Under the pieces are notes generated by a model. It had not been told where the DNA came from, did no database searches, and was given only the letters and a program-made list of their open reading frames with translations. The translations under genes and the position numbers were made by a program. A stretch of 64,000 nucleotides of DNA from Antedon mediterranea. Its lineage: Eukaryota; Animalia; Echinodermata. Every line of letters begins with the position of its first letter. Within the stretch, counting starts at the first letter, position 1. Of the stretch, positions 22,001 through 51,400 are shown piece by piece. The stretch lies in contig NC_092680.1 of assembly GCF_964355755.1 (NCBI RefSeq), forward strand, positions 7,378,001-7,442,000, written 5' to 3'.

Positions 22001-25000
22001 TTTTTCAAAACCAAATTTCAACCTTTTAATTGTTCGACATAACTAGTTTCCATATCATAATTGACATGCGCATAACACATTATTTGATTCTGCGCATGTC
22101 AATTATGATATAGTAACCAGTTATGTCCAAAAATTATAGGGGACAAAATTTCGCTATTTTTTGAAAATTTCCCTGATAGTACATGGATTTTTTCAAAACC
22201 AAATTTCAACCTTTTTACCCTGTACTATAGTACATGGGTTTTTTCAAAACCAAATTTCAACCTTTTTATTTTTCGACATAACTAGTTTCCATATCATAAT
22301 TGACATGCGCAGAACACATTATTTGATTCTGCGCATGTCAATTATGATATAGTAACTAGTTATGTCCAAAAATTATAGGGGTCAAAATTTCGCTATTTTT
22401 TGAAAATTTCCCTGTACTATAGTAGGCCTACATGGATTTTTTCAAAGCCAAATTTCAACCTTTTTATTTTTCGACATAACTAGTTTCCATATCTTAATTG
22501 ACATGCGCAAGACACATTATTTGATTCTGCGCATGTCAATTATGATATAGTAACCAGTTATGTCCAAAAATTATAGGGGTCAAAATTTCATTATTTTTTA
22601 AAAATTTCCCCGTAGGCCTACATGGATTTTTTCAAAACCAAATTTCAACCTTTTAATTGTTCGACATAACTAGTTTCCATATCATAATTGACATGCGTAG
22701 AACACATTATTTGATTCTGCGCTTGTCAATTATTATATAGTAACCAGTTATGTCCAAAAATTATAGTCGTTAAAATTTCGCTATTTTTGAAAATTTCCCT
22801 GTACTATAGTACATGGATTTTTTCAAAACCAAATTTCAACCTTTTTATTTTTCGACATAACTAGTTTCCATATCATAATTGACATGCGCAGAACACATTA
22901 TTTGATTCTGCGCATGTCAATTATGATATAGTAACCAGTTATGTCCAAAAATTATAGGGGTCAAAATTTCGCTATTTTTTGAAAATTTCCCTGTACTTTA
23001 GTACATAGATTTTTTCAAAACCAAATTTCAACCTTTTTATTTTTCGACATAACTAGTTTCTATATCATAATTGACATGCGCAGAACACATTATTTGATTC
23101 TGAGCATGTAAATTATGATATAGTAACCGTTATGTCCAAAAATTATAGTGGTCAAAATTTCGTTATTTTTTGAAAATTTCCCTGTACTATAGTACATGGA
23201 TTTTTTCAAAACCAAATTTCAACCTTTTTATTTTTCGACATAACTAGTTTCCATATCATAATTGACATGCGCAGAACACATTTTTTTTCTGCGTATGTCA
23301 ATTATGATATAGTAACCAGTTATGTCCAAAAATTATAGGGGTCAAAATTTTGCTATTTTTTGAAAATTTCCCTTAACCATAGTACATGGATTTTTTCAAA
23401 ACCAAATTTCAACCTTTTTATTTTTCGACATAACTAGTTTCCATATCATAATTGACATGCGCAGAACACATTATTTGATTCTGCGCATGTCAATTATGAT
23501 ATAGTAACCAGTTATGTCCAAAAATTATAGGGGTCAAAATTTCGCTATTTTTTGAGAATTTCCTTGTACTATAGTACATGGATTTTTTCAAAACCAAATT
23601 TCAACCTTTTTATTTTTCGACATAACTAGTTTCCATATCATAATTGACATGCGCATAACACATTATTTGATTCTGCGCATGTCAATTATGATATAGTAAC
23701 CAGTTATGTCCAAAAATTATAGGGGACAAAATTTCGCTATTTTTTGAAAATTTCCCTGATAGTACATGGATTTTTTCAAAACCAAATTTCAACCTTTTTA
23801 CCCTGTACTATAGTACATGGGTTTTTTCAAAACCAAATTTCAACCTTTTTATTTTTCGACATAACTAGTTTCCATATCATAATTGACATGCGCAGAACAC
23901 ATTATTTGATTCTGCGCATGTCAATTATGATATAGTAACTAATTATGTCCAAAAATTATAGGGGTCAAAATTTCGCTATTTTTTTAAAATTTCCCTGTAC
24001 TATAGTAGGCCTACATGGATTTTTTCAAAGCCAAATTTCAACCTTTTTATTTTTCGACATAACTAGTTTCCATATCTTAATTGACATGCGCAAGACACAT
24101 TATTTGATTCTGCGCATGTCAATTATGATATAGTAACCAGTTATGTCCAAAAATTATAGGGGTCAAAATTTCGTTATTTTTTAAAAATTTCCCTGTAGGC
24201 CTACATGGATTTTTTCAAAACCAAATTTCAACCTTTTAATTGTTCGACATAACTAGTTTCCATATCATAATTGACATGCGTAGAACACATTATTTGATTC
24301 TGCGCTTGTCAATTATGATATAGTAACCAGTTATGTCCAAAAATTATAGGGGTCAAAATTTCGCTATTTTTTGAAAATTTCCCTGTACTTTAGTACATAG
24401 ATTTTTTCAAAACCAAATTTCAACCTTTTTATTTTTCGACATAACTAGTTTCCATATCTTAATTGACATGCCCAGAACACATTATTTGATTCTGCACATG
24501 TCAATTATGATATAGTAACCAGTTATGTCCAAAAATTATAGGGGTCAAAATTTCGCTATTTTTTGAAAATTTCCCTGTACTATAGTACATGGATTCTTTC
24601 AAAACCAAATTTCAACCTTTTTATTTTTCGACATAACTAGTTTCCATATCATAATTGACATGCGCAGAACACATTATTTGATTCTGCGCATGTCAATTAT
24701 GATATAGTAACTAGTTATGTCCAAAAATTATAGGGGTCAAAATTTCGCTATTTTTTGAAAATTTCCCTGTACTATAGTAGGCCTACATGGATTTTTTCAA
24801 AACCAAATTTCAACCTTTTTATTTTTCGACATAACTAGTTTCCATATCTTAATTGACATGCGCAAGACACATTATTTGATTCTGCGCATGTCAATTATGA
24901 TATAGTAACCAGTTATGTCCAAAAATTATAGGGGTCAAAATTTCGTTATTTTTAAAAAATTTCCCTGTAGGCCTACATGGATTTTTTCAAAACCAAATTT

Positions 25001-25939
25001 CAACCTTTTAATTGTTCGACATAACTAGTTTCCATATCATAATTGACATGCGTAGAACACATTATTTGATTCTGCGCTCGTCAATTATTATATAGTAACC
25101 AGTTATGTCCAAAAATTATAGGGGTTAAAATTTCGCTATTTTTAAAAATTTCCCTGTACTATAGTACATGGATTTTTTCAAAACCAAATTTCAACCTTTT
25201 TATTTTTCGACATAACTAGTTTCCATATCATAATTGACATGCGCAGAACACATTATTTGATTCTGCGCATGTCAATTATGATATAGTAACCAGTTATGTC
25301 CAAAAATTATAGGGGTCAAAATTTCGCTATTTTTTGAAAATTTCTCTGTACTTTAGTACATAGATTTTTTCAAAACTAAATTTCAACCTTTTTATTTTTT
25401 GATATAACTAGTTTCCATATCTTAATTGACATGCGCAGAACACATTATTTGATTCTGCACATGTCAATTATGATATAGTAACCAGTTATGTCAAAAAATT
25501 ATAGGGGTCAAAATTTCGCTATTTTTTCAAAATTTCCCTGTACTATAGTACATGGATTCTTTCAAAACCAAATTTCAACCTTTTTATTTTTCGACATAAC
25601 TAGTTTCCATATCATAATTGACATACGCAGAACACATTATTTGATTCTGCGCATGTCAATTATGATATAGTAACTAGTTATGTCCAAAAATTATAGGGGT
25701 CAAAATTTCGCTATTTTTTAAAAATTTCCCTGTACTATAGTACATGGATTCTTTCAAAACCAAATTTCAACCTTTTTATTTTTCGACATAACTAGTTTCC
25801 ATATCATAATTGACATACGCAGAACACATTATTTGATTCTGCGCATGTCAATTATGATATAGTAACTAGTTATGTCCAAAAATTATAGGGGTCAAAATTT
25901 CGCTATTTTTTAAAAATTTCCCTGTACTATAGTACATGG
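13080..25939. repeat. Satellite array, ~191-bp palindromic monomer, about 65 copies, with higher-order duplications
   Basis: Monomer period 191-192 (e.g. TTCAACC at 15901 and 16092); internal stem ATATCATAATTGACATGCGCAGAA / TTCTGCGCATGTCAATTATGATAT; ORF-track offsets of 1583 and 5154 bp. Confidence 0.97.
13147..13215 (-). mobile_element. Possible Helentron-associated (HINE/DINE-like) element terminus
   Basis: Minus strand reads TTTTTAGTCGCGTCCAAACGCGACTCTATAG...TGTCGGTCAGT: T-run, hairpin (13191-13210), GTCN-type microsatellite start. Confidence 0.45.
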
Positions 25940-27492: not shown

Positions 27493-30400
27493 CTGTTAAA
27501 AAACAAAAAAATAGATAAAAAGATAGAAACCATATTTTATCCGTTATTAAATTAAATTTAATCAAAATATGATTAATACTTACAGAGAATACAATTTGTA
27601 CAGTGTCCATCTTCACCCCAAGAAAGTGGGCGGTCACTTCAAATGTACCGGCTAATGCCACTGGTGAGATTTCAAATAGAACATTCTTGAATCTAAATAC
27701 AAACAAAAAACAAATCAATTTAAATTAAAACAGTATTATGATGAATAAACAACAATGATAGATAAATAATAAAGAAAGATAAGAAAATAACTTAGTGCTC
27801 ACAACAACAACAACAAATTTATTTTTTAATACCCGTCAATATCCATGGGACAGGAAGAATTGATTGAAATCAAAAATACAAAGGAAGGAAAAAATTTTTA
27901 AAAAAGCTGAGATTTTAGCTTTCAACATTTCAGTTTTGTTTTTAGAAATGTAGAATTTAAAATTATATGTGCAGAAACATTAACTACTACTAATGATTGT
28001 GATATGAACACATATTTAAACAAATGTATTGAGGGTGATCCATGACAGTAAATGCTGTAGGGTTTCAATAAATCAATATAAAAAGAGGAAACTAAAGAAA
28101 AATTCATGCAAACTTACTGATTTTCTGATAAACCTTCGATTTCTAAGATGATCCCCTTCTCATGAAGTCTAGCACCTGTGTACTTAATTGCCTCATTTTT
28201 CTTTTTGGACTCTTTAGACTTCCTTTAAAATAAAACAATTTGAAATTAATCAATTATATGTATTTAGATTAGATAATACATAATATAATTATCAACTGAA
28301 CATAGAATCACTATAGTACATCAACTTTCAGTAGAGAAAGCATTGTCAGTAGGGCTTACACAGGTGAACTCTGTTATGTGACCTCTCTCATGTGACCTGG
28401 GCTGGCCTTTGTATTTTGTTTTATATTGGATAATTATTTTTTGTGGTACAGTATATTCCTCCTTAAGTTGTTACCATTTGTGAGGCAATGTTGGCAAGTT
28501 AATTTATAAGACTGTTAGGACTGTACTGAATATTCATAGAGACAATCAGGACTGTACTGAATATTCATAAAGACTGTTAGGACTGTACTGAATATTCATA
28601 AAGACAATCAGGACTGTACTGAATATTCATAAAGACTGTTAGGACTGTACTGAATATTCATAAAGACTGTCAGGACTGTACTGAATATTCATAAAGACAA
28701 TCAGGACTGTACTGAATATTCATAAAGACTGTTAGGACTGTACTGAATATTCATAAAGACTGTTAGGACTGTACTGAATATTCATAAAGACTGTCAGGAC
28801 TGTACTGAATATTCATAAAGACTGTTAGGACTGTACTGAATATTCATAAAGACTGTTAGGACTGTACTGAATATTCATAAAGACTGTCAGGACTGTACTG
28901 AATATTCATAAAGACTGTTAGGACTGTACTGAATATTCATAAAGACTGTTAGGACTGTACTGAATATTCATAAAGACTGTCAGGACTGTACTGAATATTC
29001 ATAAAGACTGTTAGGACTGTACTGAATATTCATAAAGACTGTTAGGACTGTACTGAATATTCATAAAGACTGTTAGGACTGTACTGAATATTCATAAAGA
29101 CTGTTAGGACTGTACTGAATATTCATAAAGACTGTTAGGACTGTACTGAATATTCATAAAGACTGTTAGGACTGTACTGAATATTCATAAAGACTGTCAG
29201 GACTGTACTGAATATTCATAGAGACTGTCAAGACTGTACTGAATATTCATAGAGACTGTCAGGACTGTACTGAATATTCATAGAGACTGTCAGGACTGTA
29301 CTGAATATTCATAAAGACTGTCAGGACTGTACTGAATATTCATAGAGACTGTTAGGACTGTACTGAATATTCATAAAGACTGTCAGGACTGTACTGAATA
29401 TTCATAAAGACTGTTAGGACTGTACTGAATATTCATAAAGACTGTTAGGACTGTACTGAATATTCATAAAGACTGTTAGGACTGTACTGAATATTCATAA
29501 AGACTGTCAGGACTGTACTGAATATTCATAAAGACTGTTAGGACTGTACTGAATATTCATAAAGACTGTTAGGACTGTACTGAATATTCATAAAGACTGT
29601 TAGGACTGTACTGAATATTCATAAAGACTGTCAGGACTGTACTGAATATTCATAGAGACTGTCAGGACTGTACTGAATATTCATAAAGACTGTCAGGACT
29701 GTACTGAATATTCATAGAGACTGTTAGGACTGTACTGAATATTCATAAAGACTGTCAGGACTGTACTGAATATTCATAAAGACTGTCAGGACTGTACTGA
29801 ATATTCATAGAGACTGTTAGGACTGTACTGAATATTCATAGAGACTGTCAGGACTGTACTGAATATTCATAAAGACTGTCAGGACTGTACTGAATATTCA
29901 TAGAGACTGTTAGGACTGTACTGAATATTCATAAAGACTGTCAGGACTGTACTGAATATTCATAAAGACTGTCAGGACTGTACTGAATATTCATAGAGAC
30001 TGTTAGGACTGTACTGAATATTCATAAAGACTGTCAGGACTGTACTGAATATTCATAGAGACTGTCAGGACTGTACTGAATATTCATAAAGACTGTCAGG
30101 ACTGTACTGAATATTCATAGAGACTGTCAGGACTGTACTGAATATTCATAAAGACTGTCAGGACTGTACTGAATATTCATAAAGACTGTCAGGACTGTAC
30201 TGAATATTCATAGAGACTGTTAGGACTGTACTGAATATTCATAAAGACTGTCAGGACTGTACTGAATATTCATAAAGACTGTCAGGACTGTACTGAATAT
30301 TCATAGAGACTGTTAGGACTGTACTGAATATTCATAGAGACTGTTAGGACTGTACTGAATATTCATAAAGACTGTTAGGACTGTACTGAATATTCATAAA

Positions 30401-33400
30401 GACTGTTAGGACTGTACTGAATATTCATAAAGACTGTCAGGACTGTACTGAATATTCATAAAGACTGTCAGGACTGTACTGAATATTCATAGAGACTGTT
30501 AGGACTGTACTGAATATTCATAAAGACTGTCAGTACTGTACTGAATATTCATAAAGACTGTCAGGACTGTACTGAATATTCATAAAGACTGTTAGGACTG
30601 TACTGAATATTCATAAAGACTGTCAGGACTGTACTGAATATTCATAAAGACTGTCAGGACTGTACTGAATATTCATAAAGACTGTCAGTACTGTACTGAA
30701 TATTCATAAAGACTGTCAGGACTGTACTGAATATTCATAAAGACTGTCAGGACTGTACTGAATATTCATAAAGACTGTCAGGACTGTACTGAATATTCAT
30801 AAAGACTGTCAGGACTGTACTGAATATTCATAAAGACTGTCAGGACTGTACTGAATATTCATAGAGACTGTAGGGACTGTACTGAATATTCATAGAGACT
30901 GTCAGTACTGTACTGAATATTCATAAAGACTATCAGGACTGTACTGAATATTCATAAAGACTGTTAGTACTGTACTGAATATTCATAAAGACTGTCAGGA
31001 CTGTACTGAATATTCATAGAGACTGTTAGGACTGTACTGAATATTCATAAAGACTGTCAGGACTGTACTGAATATTCATAAAGACTGTTAGGACTGTACT
31101 GAATATTCATAGAGACTGTTAGGACTGTACTGAATATTCATAAAGACTGTCAGTACTGTACTGAATATTCATAAAGACTGTTAGGACTGTACTGAATATT
31201 CATAAAGACTGTTAGGACTGTACTGAATATTCATAGAGACTGTCAGGACTGTACTGAATATTCATAGAGACTGTCAGGACTGTACTGAATATTCATAAAG
31301 ACTGTTAGGACTGTACTGAATATTCATAAAGACTGTTAGGACTGTACTGAATATTCATAAAGACTGTTAGGACTGTACTGAATATTCATAAAGACTGTTA
31401 GGACTGTACTGAATATTCATAAAGACTGTTAGGACTGTACTGAATATTCATAAAGACTGTTAGGACTGTACTGAATATTCATAAAGACTGTCAGGACTGT
31501 ACTGAATATTCATAGAGACTGTTAGGACTGTACTGAATATTCATAAAGACTGTCAGTACTGTACTGAATATTCATAAAGACTGTCAGGACTGTACTGAAT
31601 ATTTATAGAGACTGTTAGGACTGTACTGAATATTCATAAAGACTGTCAGTACTGTACTGAATATTCATAAAGACTATCAGGACTGTACTGAATATTCATA
31701 AAGACTGTTAGGACTGTACTGAATATTCATAAAGACTGTTAGGACTGTACTGAATATTCATAGAGACTGTTAGGACTGTACTGAATATTCATAAAGACTG
31801 TTAGGACTGTACTGAATATTCATAGAGACTGTTAGGACTGTACTGAATATTCATAAAGACTGTTAGGACTGTACTGAATATTCATAAAGACTGTTAGGAC
31901 TGTACTGAATATTCATAGAGACTGTCAGGACTGTACTGAATATTCATAAAGACTGTCAGGACTGAACTGAATATTCATAAAGACTGTTAGGACTGTACTG
32001 AATATTCATAAAGACTGTTAGGACTGTACTGAATATTCATAAAGACTGTCAGGACTGTACTGAATATTCATAAAGACTGTCAGGACTGTACTGAATATTC
32101 ATAAAGACTGTTAGGACTGTACTGAATATTCATAAAGACTGTTAGGACTGTACTGAATATTCATAAAGACTGTCAGGACTGTACTGAATATTCATAAAGA
32201 CTGTTAGGACTGTACTGAATATTCATAAAGACTGTTAGGACTGTACTGAATATTCATAAAGACTGTCAGGACTGTACTGAATATTCATAAAGACTGTCAG
32301 GACTGTACTGAATATTCATAAAGACTGTTAGGACTGTACTGAATATTCATAAAGACTGTCAGTACTGTACTGAATATTCATAGAGACTGTCAGGACTGTA
32401 CTGAATATTCATAGAGACTGTCAGGACTGTACTGAATATTCATAAAGACTGTTAGGACTGTACTGAATATTCATAAAGACTGTTATGACTGTACTGAATA
32501 TTCATAAAGACTGTCAGGACTGTACTGAATATTCATAAAGACTGTTAGGACTGTACTGAATATTCATAAAGACTGTCAGTACTGTACTGAATATTCATAG
32601 AGACTGTCAGTACTGTACTGAATATTCATAGAGACTGTCAGGACTGTACTGAATATTCATAAAGACTGTTAGGACTGTACTGAATATTCATAAAGACTGT
32701 TAGGACTGTACTGAATATTCATAAAGACTGTCAGGACTGTACTGAATATTCATAAAGACTGTTAGGACTGTACTGAATATTCATAAAGACTGTCAGTACT
32801 GTACTGAATATTCATAGAGACTGTTAGGACTGTACTGAATATTCATAAAGACTGTTAGGACTGAACTGAATATTCATAGAGACTGTTAGGACTGTACTGA
32901 ATATTCATAGAGACATTCAGGACTGTACTGAATATTCATAGAGACTGTTAGGACTGTACTGAATATTCATAAAGACTGTTAGGACTGTACTGAATATTCA
33001 TAAAGACTGTTAGGACTGTACTGAATATTCATAGAGACTGTCAGGACTGTACTGAATATTCATAGAGACTGTCAGGACTGTACTGAATATTCATAGAGAC
33101 TGTCAGGACTGTACTGAATATTCATAAAGACTGTCAGGACTGTACTGAATATTCATAGAGACTGTAGGGACTGTACTGAATATTCATAGAGACTGTCAGT
33201 ACTGTACTGAATATTCATAAAGACTATCAGGACTGTACTGAATATTCATAAAGACTGTTAGTACTGTACTGAATATTCATAAAGACTGTCAGGACTGTAC
33301 TGAATATTCATAGAGACTGTTAGGACTGTACTGAATATTCATAAAGACTGTCAGGACTGTACTGAATATTCATAAAGACTGTTAGGACTGTACTGAATAT

Positions 33401-36400
33401 TCATAGAGACTGTTAGGACTGTACTGAATATTCATAAAGACTGTTAGGACTGTACTGAATATTCATAAAGACTGTTAGGACTGTACTGAATATTCATAAA
33501 GACTGTTAGGACTGTACTGAATATTCATAGAGACTGTCAGTACTGTACTGAATATTCATAAAGACTGTTAGGACTGTACTGAATATTCATAAAGACTGTT
33601 AGGACTGTACTGAATATTCATAAAGACTGTTAGGACTGTACTGAATATTCATAGAGACTGTCAGGACTGTACTGAATATTCATAGAGACTGTCAGGACTG
33701 TACTGAATATTCATAAAGACTGTTAGGACTGTACTGAATATTCATAAAGACTGTTAGGACTGTACTGAATATTCATAAAGACTGTTAGGACTGTACTGAA
33801 TATTCATAAAGACTGTCAGGACTGTACTGAATATTCATAGAGACTGTCAGGACTGTACTGAATATTCATAGAGACAATCAGGACTGTACTGAATATTCAT
33901 AAAGACTGTCAGGACTGTACTGAATATTCATAAAGACTGTCAGTACTTTACTGAATATTCATAGAGACTGTAGGGACTGTACTGAATATTCATGAGGACT
34001 GTACTGAATATTCATAAAGACTGTCAGAATATTCATAAAGACTGTCAGGATTGCAGTACTGAATATTCATAAAGACTATCAGGACTGTACTGAATATTCA
34101 TAAGACTGTCAGGATTGCAGTACTCAGGACTGTACTTGATATTCATAAAGACTGACGGGACTGTACTGAATATTTATAAGACTGTCGGGACTGTACTGAA
34201 TATTTATGAATACTGTCGTGACTGTACTGAATATTTATGAATACTGTCGTGACTGTACTGAATATTTATGAATACTGTCGGGACTGTACTGAATATTCAT
34301 AAAGACTTTCGGGACTGTAAATATTACTCACTTTGTTTTTGTTTGTAGATTCAGCATGCACGTTTCAATGTATTTGTTATAAAAGTCTATCTGTTCTTGA
34401 TAGAATCCTGACTTTGATTCAAGACCATTCATAGTTGCACGCAGTTTCAACAACTCTTGTTTTCGTTGATTGCGGTATCTTCTTTGGTTACGGATATCCT
34501 GAAATTAAGCATGAAAAAGAAAACGCTAGAATAATGAATGAAATGATACCTGTATCTGCCAGTATTGGCCAGTCAAAATATTCTTATATACTGTTTAGCA
34601 AGCAATATATAGCTATTAGGAATTAAAAGGTAGCAAGACAAGATAGTTAATTCATTTCAAACCAACAGTGTCCAAATTAAAACAAAATTATATTATCATC
34701 TTCCACACTGTTCATAACTGAATCATAATCACTTGCCACATTTTTGTTATATAAATATAAATATATATATGTATACATCTTTACATAAAACAATACAATG
34801 AAATTGACAGACACCACTAGATATCAAGTGACTCACATGAGCGATTGAAGTCACCATGGCTTGGTAGTTATCACTTGATGAAACATGTTTAGCCTCCTCT
34901 AGAGTTGCCAGGTTCTTTTCAATTTTCCTCTTAATTGATTCTAACGGTAATCTGTGAATAACAAAGAGTAAATATGAATATAATAGACAGAATCACAGCA
35001 TTTCAGTTAAGGCTATGATATCAAATCAACGAAATAATCCTGTCTTTCTTTCAGAAAACATTAGAATAAACTCTCCCAAAGGCAGGCACCATTGGGCTGT
35101 ACCAAATGTATGGGAAAGTATTTGGGAGAATATTGATTATTCAGGGAGTCTTGTTTCTGTGTACAGGAGTTCTATCCAAACCTATGGAAAGACAAGTTCT
35201 ATCCAAACCAATGGTAAGACAAGTTCTATCCAAACCAATAGAAAGACAAGTTCTATTCAAACCAATGGTAAGACAAGCTCTATCCAAACCAATGGAAAGA
35301 CAAGTTCTATCCAAACCAAATGGAAAGACAAGTTCTATCCAAAGCAATGGAAAGACAAGTTCTATCCAAACCAATGGAAAGACAAGTTCTACCAAAACCA
35401 ATGGTAAGACAAGCTCTATCCAAACCAATGGAAAGACAAGTTCTATCCAAACCAATGAAAAGACAAGTTCTATCCAAACCAATGGTAAGACAAGTTCTAT
35501 CCAAACCACTGGAAAGATAAGTTCTATCCAAACCAATGAAAAGACAAGTTCTATCCAAACCAATGAAAAGACAAGTTCTATCCAAACCAATAGAAAGACA
35601 AGTTCTATCCAAACCAATAGAAAGACAAGTTTTATCCAAACTAATGGAAAGACAAGTTCTATCCAAAGCAAAGGAAAGACAAGTTCTATCCAAACCAATG
35701 GAAAGACAAGTTCTATCCAAACCAATTGAAAGAAAGTTCTATCTTAACCAAAGGAAAGACGAGTTCTATCCAAACCAATGGAAAGACAAGTTCTATCCAA
35801 AGCAAAGGAAAGACAAGTTCTATCCAAACCAATTGAAAGACAAGTTCTATCCAAACCAATGGAAAGACAAGTTTTATATCCAAACCAATGGAAAGACAAG
35901 TTCTATCCAAACCAATGGAAAGACAAGTTCTATCCAAACCAATGGAATGACAAGTTCTATCCAGACCAATGGAAAGACAAGTTCTATCCAGACCAATGGA
36001 AAGACAAGTTCTATCCAAACCAATGGAAAGACAAGTTCTATCCAAACCAATGGAATGACAAGTTCTATCCAAACCAATGGAATGACAAGTTCTATCCAAA
36101 CCAATGGAAAGACAAGTTCTATTCAAACCAATGGAAAGACAAGTTTTATTCAAAGCAATGGAAAGACAAGCTCTATCCAAACCAATGGAAAGACAAGTTC
36201 TATCCAAAGCAATGGAAAGACAAGTTCTATCCAAACCAATGGAAAGACAAGTTCTATCCAAACCAAATGGAATGACAAGTTCTATCCATACCAATGGAAA
36301 GACAAATTCTATTCAAACCAATGGAAAGACAAGTTCTATCCAAACCAAATGGAAAGACAAGTTCTATCCAAAGCAATGGAAAGACAAGTTCTATCCAAAG

Positions 36401-39400
36401 CAATGGTGAGACAAGTTCTATCCAAACCAATGGTGAGACAAGTTCTATCCAAAGCAAAGGAAAGACAAGTTCTATCCAAACCAATGGTGAGACAAGTTCT
36501 ATCCAAAGCAATGGTGAGACAAGTTCTATCCAAACCAATGGTGAGACAAGTTCTATCCAAAGCAAAGGAAAGACAAGTTCTATCCAAACCAATGGAAAGA
36601 CAAGTTCTATCCAAACCAAATGGAATGACAAGTTCTATCCAAACCAATGGAAAGACAAGTTCTATCCAAACCAATGGAAAGACAAGTTCTATCCAAAGCA
36701 ATGGAAAGACAAGTTCTATCCAAAGCAATGGTGAGACAAGTTCTATCCAAACCAATGGTGAGACAAGTTCTATCCAAAGCAAAGGAAAGACAAGTTCTAT
36801 CCAAACCAATGGAAAGACAAGTTCTATCCAAACCAATGGAAAGACAAGTTCTATCCAAAGCAATGGTGAGACAAGTTCTATCCAAACCAATTGAAAGACA
36901 AGTTCTATCCAAACCAATGGAAAGACAAGTTCTATCCAAAGCAAAGGAAAGACAAGTTCTATCCAAAGCAATGGAAAGACAAGTTCTATCCAAACCAATT
37001 GAAAGACAAGTTCTATCCAAACCAATGGAAAGACAAGTTCTATCCAAACCAATGGAAAGACAAGTTCTATCCAAACCAATGGAAAGACAAGTTCTATCCA
37101 AACCAATGGAAAGACAAGTTCTATCCAAACCAATGGAAAGACAAGTTCTATCCAAACCAATGGAAAGACAAGTTCTATCCAAACCAATGGAAAGACAAGT
37201 TAAGTGTATATAAAAAAAACTCACTTGCTATCGTGGAGTACAGACATTGTACGTTGTAATTTATCGTCATCTTTTGTTGCTTTTTCATCTTGTTTTACTC
37301 GTTTGCTTACTAGTGCAATATGTTCATCTTCCTGTGAAACAATTCATTGAATGTTGAGAATTTTTTCCTTGGTTTATAAATATATAAACAAATTTAAAAT
37401 GATTTAGGTTGATTAAACCAGACTCTAAATCCAAATGTGAAAATCTAACCTGCTCTTCAGTTGCAGGTGTCTTAAGCACCTGTGGAACAGTTTCTCCTGG
37501 TTGAACTCGAATAACATCCACTAAGAGCCTTTTGGTCCTGCCAAAGAAAAAAAACCTTAAATAATGCTCACGATGGTTTATATGTGGCAGTATTCCTAAG
37601 TCACAGGCTCATGCAAACATTCAGCAATGTTTGTTGTCCAAATTTTCCTATCGAATTGTATACCACTTTAAAGAAATTTAATAATACTAAAGCTCAGTCT
37701 ACCTATCAAACTTTATGTTAAAATGTGCCCATATATAGACATGATGATGGGCATATCACCACCATACGTTGCAGGGACAAGCCAGATCAGTCGCCTGTCG
37801 CAAAATTTAATTTTGAGATAATATTATCTTATTATGCAGCTAATTATCTGTTTTATAATGGTAAAAAAATTATTGTAATTCGAACGTTAGATTTAATCGA
37901 TAAAATATGAAAAAAAAAATGTTTTTGTCAACATGATTTTGACTATTCTAGGCTGTATCTCAGTTCAAGGATTACCGACAAGTGACTGGTTTGGCTTGTC
38001 CGCGCCACATATTTGGGCAAATCACACTTTTTTTTGGTCAAATTAGTTTGATAGTGTACACAGAGCTTTAGTATTTAGAACAATAACTAGAACATTAAAA
38101 GTACAATTTTATCAACTTTACCTGATAAATAATTGTACCATATCTGTATCGTCATCGCCAGCAATTTCAAATTTGTTGGTTAATGTTAATGAGATTTCCG
38201 ACTTGGCAAGGTTGGTAAGAAGAGCTTCTGCTTGCTGTTCATTGGTGTCCACTGGTGCATGCCCTAAACCCATACATAATGACATTGAAAATAACTACAA
38301 AATATTTAAAATAAAAATTCACAAACAAATATTATAAATCTATCACATACAGTACTAAAGTGGGTACCACTATATCAGATAAGCGTATTATAAATACAGG
38401 TGTACCACAGGGCTGTGTACTGTCGCCCTTTCTTTTTACTTTATTTACTTATGACTGTGTTACCTACTACAGTAACTGTCACATCGCTAAATTTGCGGAT
38501 GATACTACCATTGTAGGTCTAATCAATGATGAGTCTAATTATCGCAACCAAGTTAAACGAGTTGTAGACTGGTGTAACGAAAACAATCTGTTCTTGAATG
38601 TATCTAAGACTAAAGAAATGGTTGTTGATTTCCGTAAATCACTTAATGTCAAATATCCAATATTTATTAATGGTATATCAGTTGAGTTTGTAGAAGAATT
38701 TAAATTCTTGGGTATTTATATTTCAAATGATCTGAAGTGGCATATTAACACACGTAACATTATTAGAAAGGCCCAAAGAAGAATCTACTTCCTACGTAGA
38801 CTTAAATCATTTGGTATAAACTCTGTAATAATGTCGTCCTTCTATAGGTCAGTTATAGAGAGTGTAATAACGTATTCTTTAACGGTATGGTTCGGTAGCG
38901 CTACCGAAAATGAAAAGCGTGACCTAAATAGAATAGTCAAGACCGCATCGCGTATAATTGGATCTACACAACTGCCTTTGGAGAACATATTTTCGGATCG
39001 TCTTCTGAAAAAGGCAGTGGCTATCAAAGATGATCATTTTCATCCGGCCTCTAGTATGTTCCAGTTGATGCGCAGCGGTCGGCGATTTCGTTCTATTAAG
39101 GCCAATAAGGCACGATTTACAAATAGTTTCTTTCCAGGATCTATTAGAGCCTTAAATATGATGTAGACTTTTTTTTGTAATGTTCTTGTTTTTTGAGTTC
39201 GTGTTGTGTACGTTGGATATTGTGCTCCGCCAACAGAGCAAACAGAATTTCTATGTTTTTCCTAAAACAAATGATAATAAATGATACTTGACTTGACTTG
39301 ACTTGACTATGCCAGCTTTTCTCAAATACAGTTTTCCACAATAATGTTTAAAGCTGTGTCTACACTATCAAACTTTATGTGACAAAAAAATGTGATGTGC

Positions 39401-42400: not shown

Positions 42401-45400
42401 TAGCTTAGTGGTTAACGCCTTCTAAATCCAAGTTCAGAGTTCAATTCTGACCTAGTGCCAGGCTCCCTACTCTGTCTACTCCACTCCCTGAGACTCAAAT
42501 TAATATTGGTTTATAAGCATGATTAAGTTTATCAATTCTGTAATTGAGGAGTTACTTGCTGTTAAATGTGTATTAAACAAAAAACAATTAAAAATAAAAC
42601 ACCAAAAAACAATACAAAGTGCAAGCCAAGCATCTCGCTTAAAAAAGAACTGCTTCAAAGAAAGAGAAGATGTGAACAGATGGTAGCCAATCATCAGTAT
42701 TGACAGCGGCCGAACTTGACCTATCTTAGTTCATTAGCACATTTTATGGGGTTCTTATTTACAGAAGCAGATTTAATATAGTATTTAAATATTTTTTATA
42801 TTTCTTTACCACAAGCCAGCAAAATCTGAGTCACTTAAAGTAGCATAAAATATGTATGTAAAACTATATTCTATATAGTGAGGACAAATACCTTCAGAAT
42901 ATCATCAGATGCAGCATCTGGAAACTTCTCTGTAAGTGAATTCCTTAGAGTCTTGGCAATGTACCTCATTCCATATCTTTGAAATAGAGAATAATTATTG
43001 TTATTATACGATTTTTCACCAAATATACATGATAAAAAATGAAACAGTAAAATTAGTGTCTCAAATTTAGACCAATAGAGTGATTACTTCCGTTTGCCAA
43101 CTATACTACTGTACCATTAAACATACAGTACAAAATACTGTATATAAGGTATACTAATACTTATTGTATTAGAGGACCCACTTTTATTATTCTAATTCCA
43201 TGACAAGCAAAAAAATCTTACGGAATATCATCGATAGCTGCGATGATACTGGATAAAAACTTGTCTGATAGTGAGCTGAGCTTTGTGATTGATTCTTGAA
43301 CCCGATTGGTTACTTCATTATGCCCCATTGCTGCTGCGGCTGTTGATACTTCATAAGGCAAATCTCTACAGAGTTAATCAGAAACAACAATTTACAACAG
43401 TACTGTTAGTGTTATACTGTTTAAATGATATACGCTATTGTTTGTGATATATTTACCAGATTTAAGCTTAAGGTAAATCCGTATTAAGCTCTGTTTATAT
43501 ATACAAACAAAAGTGTGATGTGCCTAAATATGGTAGTGATATGCCCAAATATGGTAATGATATGACATCACCATATCCATATATGGGCACATCACATTTG
43601 TTGGAAAGTTGGATAGTCAGAGCTTTACTATCAGTTGTGTAGTAAAATACCCCTCCGCAAAAATGGTTCAGTCCACCAAGTGACCCGAGGTCATGTGTGT
43701 CGTCCTGAAGAGATCAGCGGGCTTTTGAAGGAATAACATACGCACGAATAGTGGACACCGCTTATCGGAATAGGCACTGTGTGTTTATCGTGGTTTGTTC
43801 AAGTTATTAAAAGATTGTAGTATTGGCCATTGCTGGGCAATGAATACCAAAGAGGCCAGCCCAGTACGACAGGTAAGCTACACTAATTTCTGCTAGTTGG
43901 TTGGCGAGCAAAAACGTAAGTCCATTATTACCCTGGTATTAGTTCTGCACGTGCCCAGAAATTAAGACCACCTGAACTACGTTCCGAGGTTGGGGAAGGA
44001 TCCCTCTCTACGATGGCAATGGTTTAAACATCTAACCCGTTTTTGTGTAGCCCAGTGGGGGGGTTGTGTCATCCAATACGCCCGGTCAATACTCCTATGT
44101 AGATTCTTGGCGGGCACCGGCATATCGTGACACCCCTCCTACCCTGTCATTTCACGGTACACGGGTAACATCTACTGTTAGTTCAGGCCCAGGGGACTCC
44201 TCAGGCTGAACAGTCTAATATGGTTACTGCTAGCACAACATCAGCGTATACCCGGCCGCACACTCCCGTCTCTCACAGGCCTCAATACTATAACAGAGTG
44301 GGTAACCCACCAGCAAGGCGGACATCTAGAGAGATACCTCAGAGACTGGTCTTATGATAACAATGATCGTACATATTAAGACAGCAGCGAGAGTGACGGG
44401 GAATATACACAACCTTCATTTCACACTGAACACGATGAGTTCTTAGCGTCCTTTAGGGAGTTCTCATGAACCACCGAGCGCAGGGCTCCTAGACGATTTA
44501 ACATTTAACATTTTAGGTCAAAAGACATCCCTAAAAATCTGTCGTTTGTTTAGCAGGAAGGACAATTGGATTCTATTTTAACAGCGCTTCCTAAATTATG
44601 CTAAAGAATATAGCTTCAGCGATAGGGGAATGCGCGATGCTTTTCAATGGTGCGTTACAGGCATTGCTGCAGATTGCTTTATTAACATAACTCATATGAA
44701 CCAAGATTTATCTTTCAGGCATATTATAGGAGCTTTCGAGGCTGAGGAATTACCTGAAGTCTTGCAAGTGAAGTTGGAGGCAGCCAGTCAACAGGAAGGT
44801 GAATCAAGACTGAAAACTGGAGCGACCAAGTACTCATCCTAACGAGGAAGGCTTTCCGCGAACTTCCAAAAGACTGGATTCATCGGAGGGCAGTCGTGAA
44901 ATTCTGCATGGGCTGTCTCGATGCCGGTCAGTACATCCTACACCAGAACCATACTACTTTGGTGGGAGCACTGGCAGCCTACGAAAAGTATATTGAGGGA
45001 ACTTTTGTATTCGGCGAAGGAAGGGGGCGACCTAGAGAGCAGGTGAGGCCGCACGCAAGATTCGCAGGCGTACCTGACCAAAGATGTCACAGGTCGCCAC
45101 CCTCGTATACAATATAATCTTCTGAGATTGAGGAAGAGGTAGAGGTCTGACAGGTTGGCAAGTTTGGAAAGGGTTGGACTCGCCCCGCGAAACCTGTCGT
45201 CCCTGGAACTGTGGATAAGAAGGATCAACACGATTGCAAGGATTCTCCACGGCCAACCCCACCCCACAACCAGGATGGAAGCGGTCGAACATCAAGTGGA
45301 TTTCTGGACGATATCGTCGTGCTGGGAAAAACCTTTGAAGACCACCTGAATAACTTAACCACTATCCTGGGAAGATTTAGGAATGCCAACCTTAAACTAA

Positions 45401-48400
45401 AACCCAAAAAGTGTATTTATTTTTCAGAGAAAGGTAGAATAACTTGGACGTGTCGTTGGCGACAATTCTCTAACAGTTTCCGACACAGATGTAGAAGCCG
45501 TCCAGAACTGGCCAACGCCAACCAACCTGCGAGAGGTACAACAGTTTCTTGGTCTGGCTAACTACCACCGAGAATTCATCAACTCCTTCGCCAACCTGGC
45601 TGTCCAGTTGTACCGTCTGACTGAGAAGGGAATTTGTGCGGGGAGAGGACCGGCAGATTGCTTCCCACTCTCTCAAGAACGCGTTGGTTCAACCTCCTGT
45701 CTTGACGTTACCAAACATCCGGGATGAATTCATACTAGATGTGGACGCTACTGGTGGTAAACTGCTGCAGATGCAAGAGGGTAATGAACAAGTAATCGCC
45801 TACGCTAGCATCTGGCTCACTGCTGAACAAGGTTATAACCGAATAGGTTATTGCACAACCCGTTGAGCATCGGCAGGGTAAGTTGCACACCAATGCTGAC
45901 GCACTTTCCCGTCTTGGGGGATGTGAGCGCGGCGCCATCACTCCGGACAACCTGCCCAGTGGGGGTTGCACCTACTGCTAGAGGACGCACGCAAAATGGG
46001 CACGGTTCCGGGAAGATGTTGATGACATTGTACCCATCCCAAATTCGAGTAGGCGAGTAGAGAAGTGGGTAGTGAGGGGGTTGTGTGGGACCCGGGTGGT
46101 CGAGCGACCTTGGAAGTAACCCGGGCCCCCAATGGAATAACTAACATTTGTATTTTACAGGATGGAGATCGATTCAGCCGGAGACACCGACCGCCCGATG
46201 TTGGGGGTACTCTGTCAGTGAACTCCAAAAGGACCAACAACACAAGAATGCTGATCTCCAGCCTATCCTACGACCCTTCAACTAATGAGCTGTTCCTTTT
46301 CAGCCCGAGCACGAAGTTCTTTTGGTTGAATCGAGACCGTCGATGGCATTCTGTTCCTGAAACACAAAACTTCTGGCGAGCGCCTCTTGATACTGCCACG
46401 CGAACTACAGTTAGTCGCCCTGCGGCTACACCACGACCTCCCTTCGGCCGGACACCAAGGCATTGCCCGAACCTGTTTTCGTCTTAAGGAAAAGTTCTTT
46501 TGGTATGGCATGTCCAGGGTTATCGAAAGGTATGTAGCCAACTGTGAAGTGTGTAACCGCAATAAGAAAACCGGCCATAAAGCACGGTACCTTTTAACAA
46601 ACTTTCATGCAGGTACACCCATGGAACGGGTACATATCGATTTCCCTGGGCCCTTACCTAAAACCAACATGGGCAATGTATACATTCTCATGATAGTGGA
46701 CCAATTCACTTAATGGGTTGAAGCCAGCCCACTCCCTTGACAGCGGAGGTAACGGGCCGAGCCGTGGTAGGGAATTTCTTCTCCCAGTTCGGTTTTTCTT
46801 TTGTAACTCCACTCTGATCAGGGGATTAATTTTGAAAGTGAATTATTTAGTTCTTTATGTAAAGTTTTACAGATCCACAAGACCCGGACCACCAGCTACC
46901 AACCAGCTCCAGGTGGAACGATACAACCGGACACTGATGGATGCTGTGAGATGTTTTGTAGGCCGGCAACAGAAGGACTGGGATGTGTTTCTAACGCAGT
47001 TTGGTACCATGGCGCCTGCATGAATGTCTCGCCTTTAGACGCCCTGAAGCGATTGTATGGTACGCTGTTTAACTATTTTTTTGTGTTCTTGTATCTCCAT
47101 AGGTTGATTTCGGCACAACCGATATCCGGTGGCGTCCCCTGTCGGTAAAGGAGCAGGAAGAAACCCGGCGACAACTACTTGAATCTGTACGTACCCCAGC
47201 ATCAACGGCAGAGGTCAGTGGAGACGTGACCGGTGTGGAGACTTCCCTCTAATCAACGCCAGAACCACTACCATCAAGCGCGGCGACCTAGGATCTACGC
47301 CCATGTCGGAAAAACCTGGGAGTGTTCCCAGGATGCGTATTCGCACTACATGTTTTAAGCTACCATCCACTCCGAAGAAGACACAAACCAAACTCTGCCT
47401 GCTGCGGAAGTACGCCATCGAGATACTGGGTAGACCAGAGTGCACTTTGGACAACCTGGTCACCCAACTGAATAACGAAAAGGCTGTCGGTCGCATGTAG
47501 GCGGCATTGACCAGAGAACCCTTGACATGATGTTTGAGCTGCAAGCGGCAATCGGAGGTGAGCCGCCGGAGGGATTTACCTTTGGGCCACTCAACCACCC
47601 GGCGGCACTAATCCACTGGCGCTCCATGGTTGCAATGGCACAGCGGATGGATATCATCAGGATGAGCCAGCTAGCCGCTGAAGCTGAGGGCGAGAATCCC
47701 CTCGCCCAGCCTCACGCCGCTGAAGCTGAGGACGAGAATTCTCTTGGCCAGCCACCCGCCCTAAGAATACCAAACACAGTTTGACCACCAAAAGGAGGCC
47801 CAGGTCACCGACCCCCTCCAGGTGGGAGAAGAAGACCGTATGCACCACGATAGGAGCGTTCGACGCCCACTTCCACTGGGACCGCTTGCACTCCTTCCTG
47901 AGGCTGCCTCCTCAAGCAACGCTGATGGAGACCTTGATGCTGAACCAGCTGGAGCTCAGACAAAGCCGGTAAGACCTGTCGGGGGTGTTGCCATCTTTTG
48001 CGACCCTCCCTCCTACCCTTTAACAGAGTTTCATCGCCTTCGGCAAGAGGAGTATGAGGTGAGGGTTGGGGTTCACCCCAAGAAGGATGTCTCTCCAGGT
48101 TAACTCTCCCAACTGAAGGCCTTGGTGCGCTCCGGCGTTACCTGGGTGCTCGGGAAAATTGGCTTGGACCACTTCGTTCCGGTCGCCGATTGGTTTAGAC
48201 AGGAGGAGATGTTGCGTTGCCTTCTGGCACAGGGTTTCTCACCGCGACACCATCTAGCGATCTGCCTGCATCTGAGAGACAGACAACAAATTCCAAGAAG
48301 TGTATGCATTCTGCTTCATAATTTCTCCTCGACTATGTTAATGGTCGATAGGTTTAGGAGTGTTTTTCCCCTAACCTATTTCAGCTTTACACGGTCGGTG

Positions 48401-51400
48401 GAGAATTTCAACGCAGAGCAGAAGTTTTAAGTTGTTGTTATGTTATTTTAGTAAGGTGCTACTCCTAGAAGATGCACTGGGTTCAGTTATCATTAGCGTT
48501 AACCAGAAGTTATTGTTTTGTTTTACAGCATGACCACCCGAGCACCGGCCCTGGCCTTATAAGTGGGAAGTGTAGTGAAATACCCCTTCTGCAAAATGGT
48601 TCAGTCCACCAAGTGACCCGAGGTCATGTGTGTCGTCCTGAAGAAATCAGCGGGCGGGTTTTTTAGGAATAATATCGGAATTGTGTGTTTATCGTGGTTT
48701 GTTATTAAAAGAGAAAAAAAAATAGTAGTACAAGTAGTATTGGCCATTGCTGCGCAATGAACTCCAAAGAGACCAGCCCAGTACAACAGGTAAGCTACAC
48801 TACTTTCTGCTAGTTGGTTTATACTCTCGGCCGTTTTACAACAGTTGGTTTGACAAAATAAAGTCAAAGTACTTGCTAATTCAAAACAAGTACTGTAGTA
48901 TCAGGATATTAAATGGATTATTATGATGGACTATTATTCAACATATTTTGTATACTTTTACTGTTTACTTTTAACCGTTTATATTTGGAATAAAAATTAG
49001 TCTGTATTAACTTACGTAGCTTCCCCAGTCTCTGTCTCTTGTTGGTTAATCCACGTCTTGTAAACATCAATTGGATTTGTGTTGATGTTAATGTTTTTGT
49101 CATCCATTATTTCCTTAACCAATGGTTGGAGAATGCTTCTCAATGAACTCTGACCTTTAGCACCTCTGAAAAATTACCCAATATAAAGATTATAACAATT
49201 AAAACATTTTGTCAGATGGAGATGCAGCAGGTTCAAATTCTTTTGGGAGTAATTTATCACATGCTTCAATTTATGTGACTATAACCCTTGTGAGCTATGC
49301 TATGTGGAACCAGTTCTGTACAATATTTGTACTAGCTTATATTACAAACTCATATAATTTACCTGTTGAATGTAACCACCATTTTAATGACCATTGGGTT
49401 CCCTGTAATAATCTCCATCATCTTATCAACCTTTGACCTGAAACAAACCATCCAATCCAGTTTTCAGTATTTCAATTACAACTGCATTAAGTCTAGAATA
49501 ATGCATTATTTATAAATATAATATAAATCAAAAAATAAAACTACATGGATGAATGAATTACATAAGAAAAGAGGCGAAATACTTTGAAATATAATACAAA
49601 TTTGTTTAAAAATTATGACAATTAAAGTTGTTATGTAGTTTTACTGTTTATGAAATACTGTAATTAAAACAGAGAGCACAATGTGAATACAAATTGACAA
49701 AAGAGGTACTGTATAACATAAAAAAGATATTTAGACGTTTAACTCTTTAGGATGCTTACAGTATTTGGTATTTAACAATCCAACACTTATCCAACAGGAT
49801 GGATGGACAGTCATTTAATAGCTCAATGCTGGGAGTCTTATTTGAACAAACATGAATTTTAATGAACGCTCGCTTAAATGAATAGGGTGGTTTTCCTTCA
49901 CCTACACAACCATTGGATAATTAATTCTATTTTTAGACTCTATAATTAATGGTTTTAGAAGGGAGGCCTGCGTAAACATGTCATGCTACAACACACTGCA
50001 TGCTGCGAGAGTAAACTTTAACATTTGCAACAATAGTATAACAAATGTGCATTTAAAAAAAAGAAGAAAATATTAAAACTTTTGCATATAATTTCATAAT
50101 TGAATACAAATTGACAAGCTATATTAATGATTGCTATGGTAACATGATTTACTACAACTATTTTATAATAATGAGTGCAAGCAAAATGAAATGTATTTAA
50201 TTTGCGTTTAAAGAATCAAGGCAAAATTATTTTACTTAACTGCAGTGGCTTATATATTTTATTTACTTTTTTTGGGTAATCATACACAATGTTATTGCAA
50301 TGATACCTCATCAACCTCTACTAATCATGTATGTTACTGCAGTAAAAATGTATTACTGCAGAAAGTGCAGTAGAATAATTTTGACATGATTGCTATATAT
50401 AACAAAGCAAATGAAATAAATCAAAATGGATAAATATTAACAATGGTGAAACACTTTATATAGTGGTCAAATGTTATGAATTACCCACAATCCTTAATCA
50501 AATAAAATGAAAGTATATCAAGTTATAATTTACAGAAAAGACATAGAAACAGAGTGGGAACTCTAAAGATGAACCACCAAGTAAAGGAGTTTCTGACAGT
50601 GTAGGTACTGTGGTCCTTTAATAAGTTGTACCTCAAAAAAATGTTGTATACATGGCCGATCTTCTGTAGTAAACGACAATGTCGATTAGTCTTACATTCA
50701 TCTGAATGATGACTAAGCCAGGACTGTTTAAAGCACCTTTGGCTGATCCCAACATTGACCAAGGTCTTATCTCGTCCAGTGCCCACCTTAACCAGAGGAG
50801 AGGCAAAACCCAATACGTCTGAGGCAGATACTAGATGCAGGGGCTGCCATAAGAGTCAGCAGTGCTGATTTCAAATGCCTTATGTGTCCCCAGCTCCATA
50901 TACAGCACCCATTATTCCCAGATGGTGCTTAACTTCAGTGATCTTACGAGAACCGGTGTTTCAATGTGGTAGGGCCGTAGAAAAAATGTAGTACTTTAAT
51001 AAAAATAATGGTTCCTCAAAAGAGGTGGTACAATTTAGAGTTTCCACTGATCATGCTATCACTTAACCCTCAACCTAGTAGAGTTTAGTAGAATCACCAC
51101 CTCACAATTTAAACTTATGTTTAATTTATAATATTATTGTACAGTATTGTACAGTATATTTAAAACAGGTTTTTAACTTTCACTAGAACAATTTCTACTT
51201 CACAACATAAAATAATAAATAAAGCTGATGAACTTTTAAATGTAGTTTATGTACTATTTGTCAGTTTCATTCACTAAATCTATAATTGGTATGTATTTTT
51301 ACGTTTAAAAATATAGATAATATATTCCAATAAATTGTATAATGCAAAAAGAAAGAAAAAGTACAGAATAGTGCATACCAAAATGTTGAGTTCACACTCA

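Follow-up and report, generated by a model that had tools for sequence, protein, structure and literature searches.

A 64,000-nucleotide stretch of the genome of the echinoderm Antedon mediterranea (contig NC_092680.1, positions 7,378,001 to 7,442,000 of the forward strand, hereafter the window) contains a dead Gypsy retrotransposon copy flanked by long terminal repeats (LTRs). In the position where an envelope (env) gene would stand, its third open reading frame (ORF3) ends in a TatD nuclease domain of the TATDN2 type. The best explanation of the whole, to which we give a probability of about one half, is that ORF3 descends from a captured host TATDN2-like enzyme and that, in intact relatives, it would trim RNA on RNA:DNA hybrids.

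In the window, motif FDAHFH (47859-47876) occupied one frame and the remaining TatD motifs a second one, in the order FCDP (47996-48007), GVHP (48068-48079), a stop codon (48101-48103), GKIGLDH (48152-48172), LHLRD, LHNF and YFSF. All motifs of the string that a first-pass annotation of the bare sequence had read from FDAHFH to YFSF, across one frameshift and one stop, were located in that order. Its placement of the domain between the integrase and the purine tract and 3' LTR of a Gypsy element was likewise borne out, since the LTR pair, remnants of reverse transcriptase (RT), RNase H and integrase, and the purine tract were all present. A HMMER comparison with Pfam TatD_DNase (PF01026), which it had suggested, gave 29.1 bits against a cut-off of 27 (E 8.2e-7) for positions 47966-48427 translated with X at the stop. 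The last ORF fragment alone reached E 3.7e-4 with Pfam TatD, and the match of 47966-48427 to TIGR00010 was weak (E 9e-4, far under its cut-off). With a profile built from relatives, E values were 2.8e-35 on 47954-48424 and 3.7e-6 on 47847-48005. The window TatD fragment retrieved nothing from a word-indexed search or from a metagenome scan, and its best match in a PDB sequence search was not significant (E 0.58).

The lysine at the glutamate ligand and the missing ETD segment, both pointed out at first pass, were seen, and two features were added to them: a 19-residue internal gap near 48282-48290, and an earlier start of ORF3 at about 47103, some 700 bases upstream of the coordinates first noted, with remnants of its N-terminal domain at 47378-47670. 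The other lesions of the domain were a frameshift near 47940, the stop at 48101 and the loss of the C-terminal quarter, the sequence stopping at 48430 with about 64 of the 277 profile positions gone, including ETD. The window copy thus lacks the complete six-ligand set of TatD class II (HxH) and, because of the lysine and the lost ETD end, is incapable of activity. Contigs from three samples representing two organisms (X1, X5 and X6; X1 and X4 were one and the same sample, which may be the one that the window came from) covered the whole element including the TatD region, many of them at 80-95% identity. The stop site read differently in four, three and three contigs of X1, X5 and X6, respectively, the frameshift site had another length in two, one and two, and extra sequence filled the internal gap in one X6 contig. 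Several contigs also continued with different sequence past the end of the window TatD. Among the matches listed, none extended from pol into TatD. These breaks therefore belong to the window copy.

A HMMER search retrieved 264 relatives of the ORF3 protein at E<=1e-3, 40 of them at E<=1e-10; conservation counts given here rest on the best 150. The two best (P0002 and P0003), both gene models, came from the crinoid Anneissia japonica, and the window TatD grouped with them in the TatD tree (100/100). Other named relatives occurred in the sea star Patiria and the sea urchins Diadema and Strongylocentrotus, in molluscs (Pecten, Argopecten, Mizuhopecten, Pinctada, Saccostrea, Mya, Dreissena, Mercenaria, Mactra, Ruditapes and Haliotis) and in the brachiopod Lingula. 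Long relatives displayed a common organization, in which a C-x4-C...H-x4-H motif follows a variable N-terminus and precedes a helical domain with N-x-P-A-x-L-x-H-W-R at its end; a linker then leads to the C-terminal TatD. The N-domain profile matched 56 of the 58 relatives of at least 450 residues and none of 21 TATDN2 proteins. This C2H2-like plus helical domain (P0006:24-166 and relatives) is conserved and was modelled with a predicted local distance difference test (pLDDT) score of 80-98; it had no Pfam match.

All six metal ligands (H, H, E, H, H, D) were intact in 88 of the 92 relatives covering them, and the glutamate in 145/149. Comparisons among relatives, another check proposed at first pass, showed purifying selection on the predicted TatD at the codon level, with dN/dS values (nonsynonymous over synonymous divergence) of 0.018/0.13 and 0.030/0.23 (ratio about 0.13) in the only two unsaturated pairs among 22 domains; two further pairs gave about 0.21/1.4. 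Six relatives scored 69-142 bits with PF01026. The TIM-barrel fold was tested on models of relatives P0026 and P0006 (pLDDT 97 and 90), not of the window copy, and TatD structures were their best matches. The P0026 model was a TatD barrel with a best TM score of 0.77, to YcfH; models of relatives matched TatD structures with a Foldseek E of 3.9e-16 and a VIA Z of 28.7 (root-mean-square deviation 2.9 over 252 residues). For P0002, the Atlas returned no feature match, and by structure gave TatD clusters only. Intact copies very probably encode an active enzyme.

Linkage to pol was found outside the window as well, and the layout LTR-gag-pol(PHD)-ORF3-LTR was shown in relatives. An 11.7-kb contig (L092) of a symbiont metagenome-assembled genome (MAG) carried gag, pol (protease-RT-RNase H-integrase-PHD) and ORF3 with TatD; its terminal repeats were 99% identical and it had one in-frame stop in ORF3, upstream of the TatD part. 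We infer that such contigs are host DNA binned with the bacterium. The assembly concerned (G001) gave 31 matches on 23 contigs. Two of these were set aside as the bacterium's own TatDs (C144, which grouped with bacteria in the TatD tree, and C1192, which was outside the tree), leaving 21, of which 14 displayed integrase and/or the pol-terminal PHD finger directly upstream on the same strand. When five genomes of the genus were compared, G005 was the only other one with matches, two in number, one of which had PHD upstream. An integrase tree was built on an unbroken 127-residue piece. In addition to the window, it took in 11 TatD-bearing elements and 15 further ones, which were what remained of 20 hand-picked, high-scoring pol contigs after removal of five without the piece. 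The window integrase formed a clade (100/99) with 10 TatD-bearing elements and with none of the 15 others. The eleventh (C1247), whose TatD is divergent, fell outside this main clade, and the two contigs beside it were of insufficient length for a verdict; a single capture with subsequent losses may account for this, and so may two separate captures. In nine of the 15 others, downstream sequence was too limited for them to be called TatD-less, and four (C857, C90, C596 and C511) were repeat-bounded units without any TatD; Gypsy replication therefore does not generally need it. With relatives that are intact, conserved and pol-linked, the earlier proposal of a stable cargo in the env position stood, and TatD can be regarded as a lineage-wide cargo of these Gypsy elements with near certainty.

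Integrases of the main TatD-bearing clade ended in a PHD finger (L092:8033-8212 and 12 other G001 contigs; Pfam PF00628, E 3.6e-9), which was present in none of the 20 fetched contigs without TatD, several of these being incomplete. In L092, the gag N-terminus (1650-3962) displayed a weak helix-hairpin-helix match (E 0.005). G001 (L092-L158) is a 9-Mb assembly titled Sedimenticola MAG; it contained 234 Gypsy pol matches and 21 contigs with an element TatD; animal retrotransposon contigs were apparently carried over into it in quantity. Several of its element TatDs bear annotation as bacterial 'TatD family hydrolase'.

As to the source of the domain, two TatD trees of 63 and 51 rows were computed under LG+G4, an oomycete TatD serving as outgroup; beside the TatDs of the elements and TATDN2, they included 18 and 29 others. 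Element TatDs occupied one side of a branch (100/98 and 100/96), with TATDN2 as their sister (100/99 in both trees) and not nested. A tree against TATDN2 and bacterial TatDs, envisaged at first pass, thereby named the host TATDN2 lineage as the source. Scores with the element profile ran parallel: 152-184 bits for TATDN2 versus 104-137 for 58 bacterial-type matches, and at most 139 bits for 92 TatD frames from metagenomes, viral contigs and MAGs. An F/Y-C/S-D-P motif was conserved at 88-98% per column in relatives and occurred in 21/21 TATDN2 proteins and 0/92 of these frames. When metagenome and viral contigs were scanned by alignment, only weaker TatDs came up, and the 24 best of these fell among bacterial TatDs. 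A bacterial origin was rejected on account of the trees and the motif, although E. coli YcfH was the best PDB match (E 2.8e-38); no TATDN2 chain was among the PDB matches. Animal TATDN2 (TatD class II, HxH) shares with the element protein the FCDP motif, the six metal ligands, a long N-terminal extension and the C-terminal position of TatD. The element version differs in being only about 30% identical, in lying inside an LTR element and in its C2H2-like plus helical domain, absent from all 21 TATDN2 proteins. Trees and motif together make a TATDN2 origin highly probable. Capture likely went from host to element, because TATDN2 is present in most eukaryotes (PMC10085689). Within the TatD tree, crinoid-type TatDs joined those of scallops and the sea star (100/96), and two G001 elements joined the sea-urchin TatDs; such groupings, contrary to host phylogeny, would reflect either horizontal transfer or old paralogy.

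ORF3 appears to be equipped for its own expression. A pyrimidine tract with YAG stood 0-16 bases before the ORF3 ATG in 13/14 relatives compared with 259 of 2169 (12%) other ATGs at the same loci, a figure diminished by the facts that the rule was set after the sequences had been viewed and that related elements are not independent. The fourteenth had a similar site that failed the no-AG rule. In the window, no ATG follows the acceptor at 47102. The candidate ATG exon of the LTR, with its CAG/GTAAG, is also retained in the 3' LTR from 48757, and would be in phase with ORF3 if joined to 47103, as would ATG/GT at 47060. A 43-base mini-intron, running from ATG/GTACG at 47060 up to the acceptor, could equally have supplied the start codon in place of the LTR exon, unless the codon was lost by decay. 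Donor sites at the 5' ends of relatives followed no consistent pattern. We infer that ORF3 would be translated from a spliced, env-style subgenomic mRNA; no splice joint appeared among the contig matches listed.

The mechanism we favour is as follows. Made from its spliced message as an accessory enzyme, an intact ORF3 TatD would act as a two-metal 3'-5' nuclease and trim the RNA strand of RNA:DNA (R-loop-like) structures, to the benefit of the element. Its targets would be three-stranded hybrids poorly handled by RNase H. Candidate places for this are of two kinds: three-stranded strand-transfer or displacement intermediates formed while the element is being reverse-transcribed, and germ-cell R-loops, arising either where the element is transcribed or at its target site. 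The human enzyme TATDN2 degrades the RNA of R-loops from its 3' end and has little DNase and very weak apurinic/apyrimidinic (AP) activity (PMC10711561). In medaka, TATDN2 guards the primordial germ cells against damage caused by R-loops (PMC12709183). We favour the trimming of RNA on hybrids over cDNA proofreading because the human enzyme attacks R-loop RNA and barely cuts DNA; for the same reason, the DNA-centred roles imagined at first pass (proofreading of cDNA, or its clearance when uracilated or abasic) were weakened. By this analogy an RNA-on-hybrid substrate is a tentative assignment, with chances a little short of even. A wider formulation, in which an ancient Gypsy clade took the germ-line R-loop RNase TATDN2, added a zinc-finger/helical targeting domain and strips RNA from its own or from silencing hybrids, would be somewhat more doubtful still.

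Several observations weigh against this reading. Human TATDN2 displays minimal activity on plain RNA:DNA duplexes and its R-loop binding depends on its own N-terminus (PMC10711561); that N-terminus is replaced in the elements, whose N-domain occurs in 0/21 TATDN2, so the element substrate may differ. Other HxH-class members, YcfH and TATDN3, are DNA 3'-exonucleases and AP endonucleases (PMC10085689). P0002, the closest full-length relative, lacks two ligands (N for H, P for E), and catalysis is thus not universal in the lineage. Of the six TATDN2 rows in the trees, a single one was from an invertebrate; TATDN1 and TATDN3 were not represented by name, and branches were long. Pol linkage was seen only in the window, G001 and one G005 locus, and not for the named RefSeq proteins; 7/21 G001 contigs showed no pol, these being 2.4-4.0 kb long and uninformative either way.

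The same cargo might instead be a DNA enzyme, a 3'-5' exonuclease or AP endonuclease serving to trim or repair the ends of cDNA or the intermediates of integration. YcfH and TATDN3 indeed have single-stranded DNA 3'-exonuclease and double-stranded DNA AP-endonuclease activities (PMC10085689), the ligands are intact in 88/92 relatives, and TATDN2 deprived of its N-terminus, the part in which the element protein differs, nicks catenated DNA more (PMC10711561). Yet the nearest host relative is TATDN2 itself, with its little DNase and very weak AP activity (PMC10711561), and four of the 15 non-TatD elements are repeat-bounded without it, so that Gypsy replication generally manages without such help; we consider a DNA role rather unlikely. 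Lower again stands a role in anti-silencing, whereby ORF3 would degrade or displace host silencing RNAs (nascent-RNA hybrids guided by PIWI-interacting RNAs) and its zinc-finger/helical domain would target chromatin or a host protein. This would suit a protein that likely has its own message, outside the polyprotein, that has a long N-terminus with a new conserved domain in 56/58 long relatives, and that belongs to elements whose integrase bears a PHD chromatin reader; a silencing-linked role has been considered for rotifer ORF3s with a DEDDy nuclease (PMC5408684).

That the barrel mainly binds nucleic acids, catalysis being dispensable in some sublineages including the crinoid-type one, is improbable: the N for H and P for E of P0002 and the lysine of the window speak for it, but P0003, the other close crinoid relative, keeps the ligands it covers (E, H, H, D), the glutamate persists in 145/149 relatives, and the lysine may itself be decay in a copy that is decayed throughout. 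Still further down comes the suspicion that a piece of a host TatD was captured just once, or that the motifs in a decayed element line up by chance. It could draw on the badly broken state of the window copy and the E of 0.58 in the PDB sequence search, but the Pfam cut-off was passed, the trees speak against it, and diverged family contigs span the TatD region in two organisms. The 264 relatives, the pol linkage in G001 and the integrase clade rule it out, and we grant it a negligible share. RNA trimming on hybrids by a TATDN2-derived ORF3 is the reading retained below.

Enzymatic, non-envelope ORF3s are already known from bdelloid rotifers, and the TatD/TATDN2-type is a new variety of them. 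In the Gypsy-like LTR retrotransposons Juno and Vesta, ORF3 encodes a predicted 3'-5' exonuclease whose catalytic residues are intact, of RNase D-like DEDDy fold there as opposed to the TIM-barrel TatD here; the rotifer gene was acquired recently, within particular families, and evolves close to neutrality (PMC5408684). TatD elements, in contrast, form an old clade over several phyla, with purifying selection, a conserved acceptor and an N-terminal domain of their own. Full-text searches found no report of a TatD in a retrotransposon, Repbase, subscription journals and supplements lying outside their coverage. Term look-up in PMC6238403, PMC12440569 and PMC13524379 found no mention of a nuclease ORF3, and in PMC6962438 the TatD mentions were a gene label in a figure legend.

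In errantiviruses and retroviruses, env is an ORF3 expressed from a spliced subgenomic message. The TatD ORF3 resembles it in its post-integrase position and in the acceptor directly before its start codon, and differs in having a TatD fold instead of being a membrane fusion glycoprotein. A hydrophobic 19-mer (Kyte-Doolittle average of at least 1.8) occurred in 3 of 42 long relatives and in none near the N-terminus.

Table 1. Coordinates, in the window, of the Gypsy copy and its candidate expression signals
Feature	Position	Strand	Remarks
5' LTR	~43638-43902	+	3' end approximate
ATG plus 11 codons, then donor-like CAG/GTAAG (candidate)	43840-43878	+	in the 5' LTR
Primer-binding-site-like TGGCGAGC	43902-43909	+	
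Second donor-like GTAAGT	43916	+	
gag remnant, broken	44582-45117	+	by eye like gag of relative L092
pol remnant (RT end, connection, RNase H)	45286-46038	+	domain search and comparison with relative L131
Integrase (H2C2 and core), broken	46275-47005	+	
Splice-acceptor-like pyrimidine tract ending in TAG	47079-47102	+	directly before ORF3
ORF3 N-terminal part, broken	47103-47700	+	TDIR motif, C2H2-like remnant, helical domain with N-x-P-A-A-L-x-H-W-R
ORF3 C-terminal TatD (TATDN2-type, HxH class), broken	47847-48430	+	
Polypurine tract	48561-48570	+	from sequence; just before the 3' LTR
3' LTR	48571-48819	+	pairs with the 5' LTR

The window element is a decayed, dead Gypsy LTR retrotransposon copy (Table 1), in which paired LTRs surround the coding region and pol remnants follow the Ty3/Gypsy order RT-RNase H-integrase. 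It forms a GC-richer island at about 44-48.5 kb of an otherwise AT-rich, animal-type window. The LTRs were identical at 218 of 236 aligned columns, apart from large indels, and both open with TG; a CA end and a clear target-site duplication could not be fixed. The primer-binding-site-like sequence presumably corresponds to tRNA-Arg. No gag-family Pfam match was obtained for the gag remnant, and protease, most of RT and the integrase C-terminus remained unmatched in comparison with the pol of relative L131. Together with that C-terminus, the PHD finger of relatives is largely gone, a single trace (E 0.18) occurring at 47002-47046.

Abutting the 5' LTR on its left, a short repeat of very high copy number (43500-43600), which contains a 23-base inverted repeat, reached thousands of times the depth of the element in contig matches, and is possibly a miniature inverted-repeat transposable element that the element entered or landed beside. 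Elsewhere in the window, at 38315-39166, an uninterrupted frame of 283 residues encoded the C-terminal part of an RT of non-LTR retrotransposon type (RVT_1 and ALKBH8_N). About 12 kb (13548-25939) were composed of a 192-bp satellite with a long inverted repeat within the unit, and two minisatellites were recorded (31 bp x 181 at 28508-34114 and 27 bp x 75 at 35168-37201).

Our results suggest that many bivalve and echinoderm gene models named 'TatD', 'YcfH-like' or 'TATDN2' are retrotransposon ORF3s, as may be some 'TatD hydrolases' of symbiont MAGs. The intact natural copies make up hundreds of diverged TATDN2-like enzymes, while no TATDN2 structure appeared in our PDB searches. For LTR retrotransposons, the TatD ORF3 represents a new class of accessory enzyme, whose source was traced to a host gene involved in the control of germ-cell R-loops. 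Germ cells are where elements must replicate, and the finding opens a test of whether transposons control RNA:DNA hybrids by means of a captured enzyme; if the reading is true, this ORF3 would be a transposon-encoded R-loop resolver.

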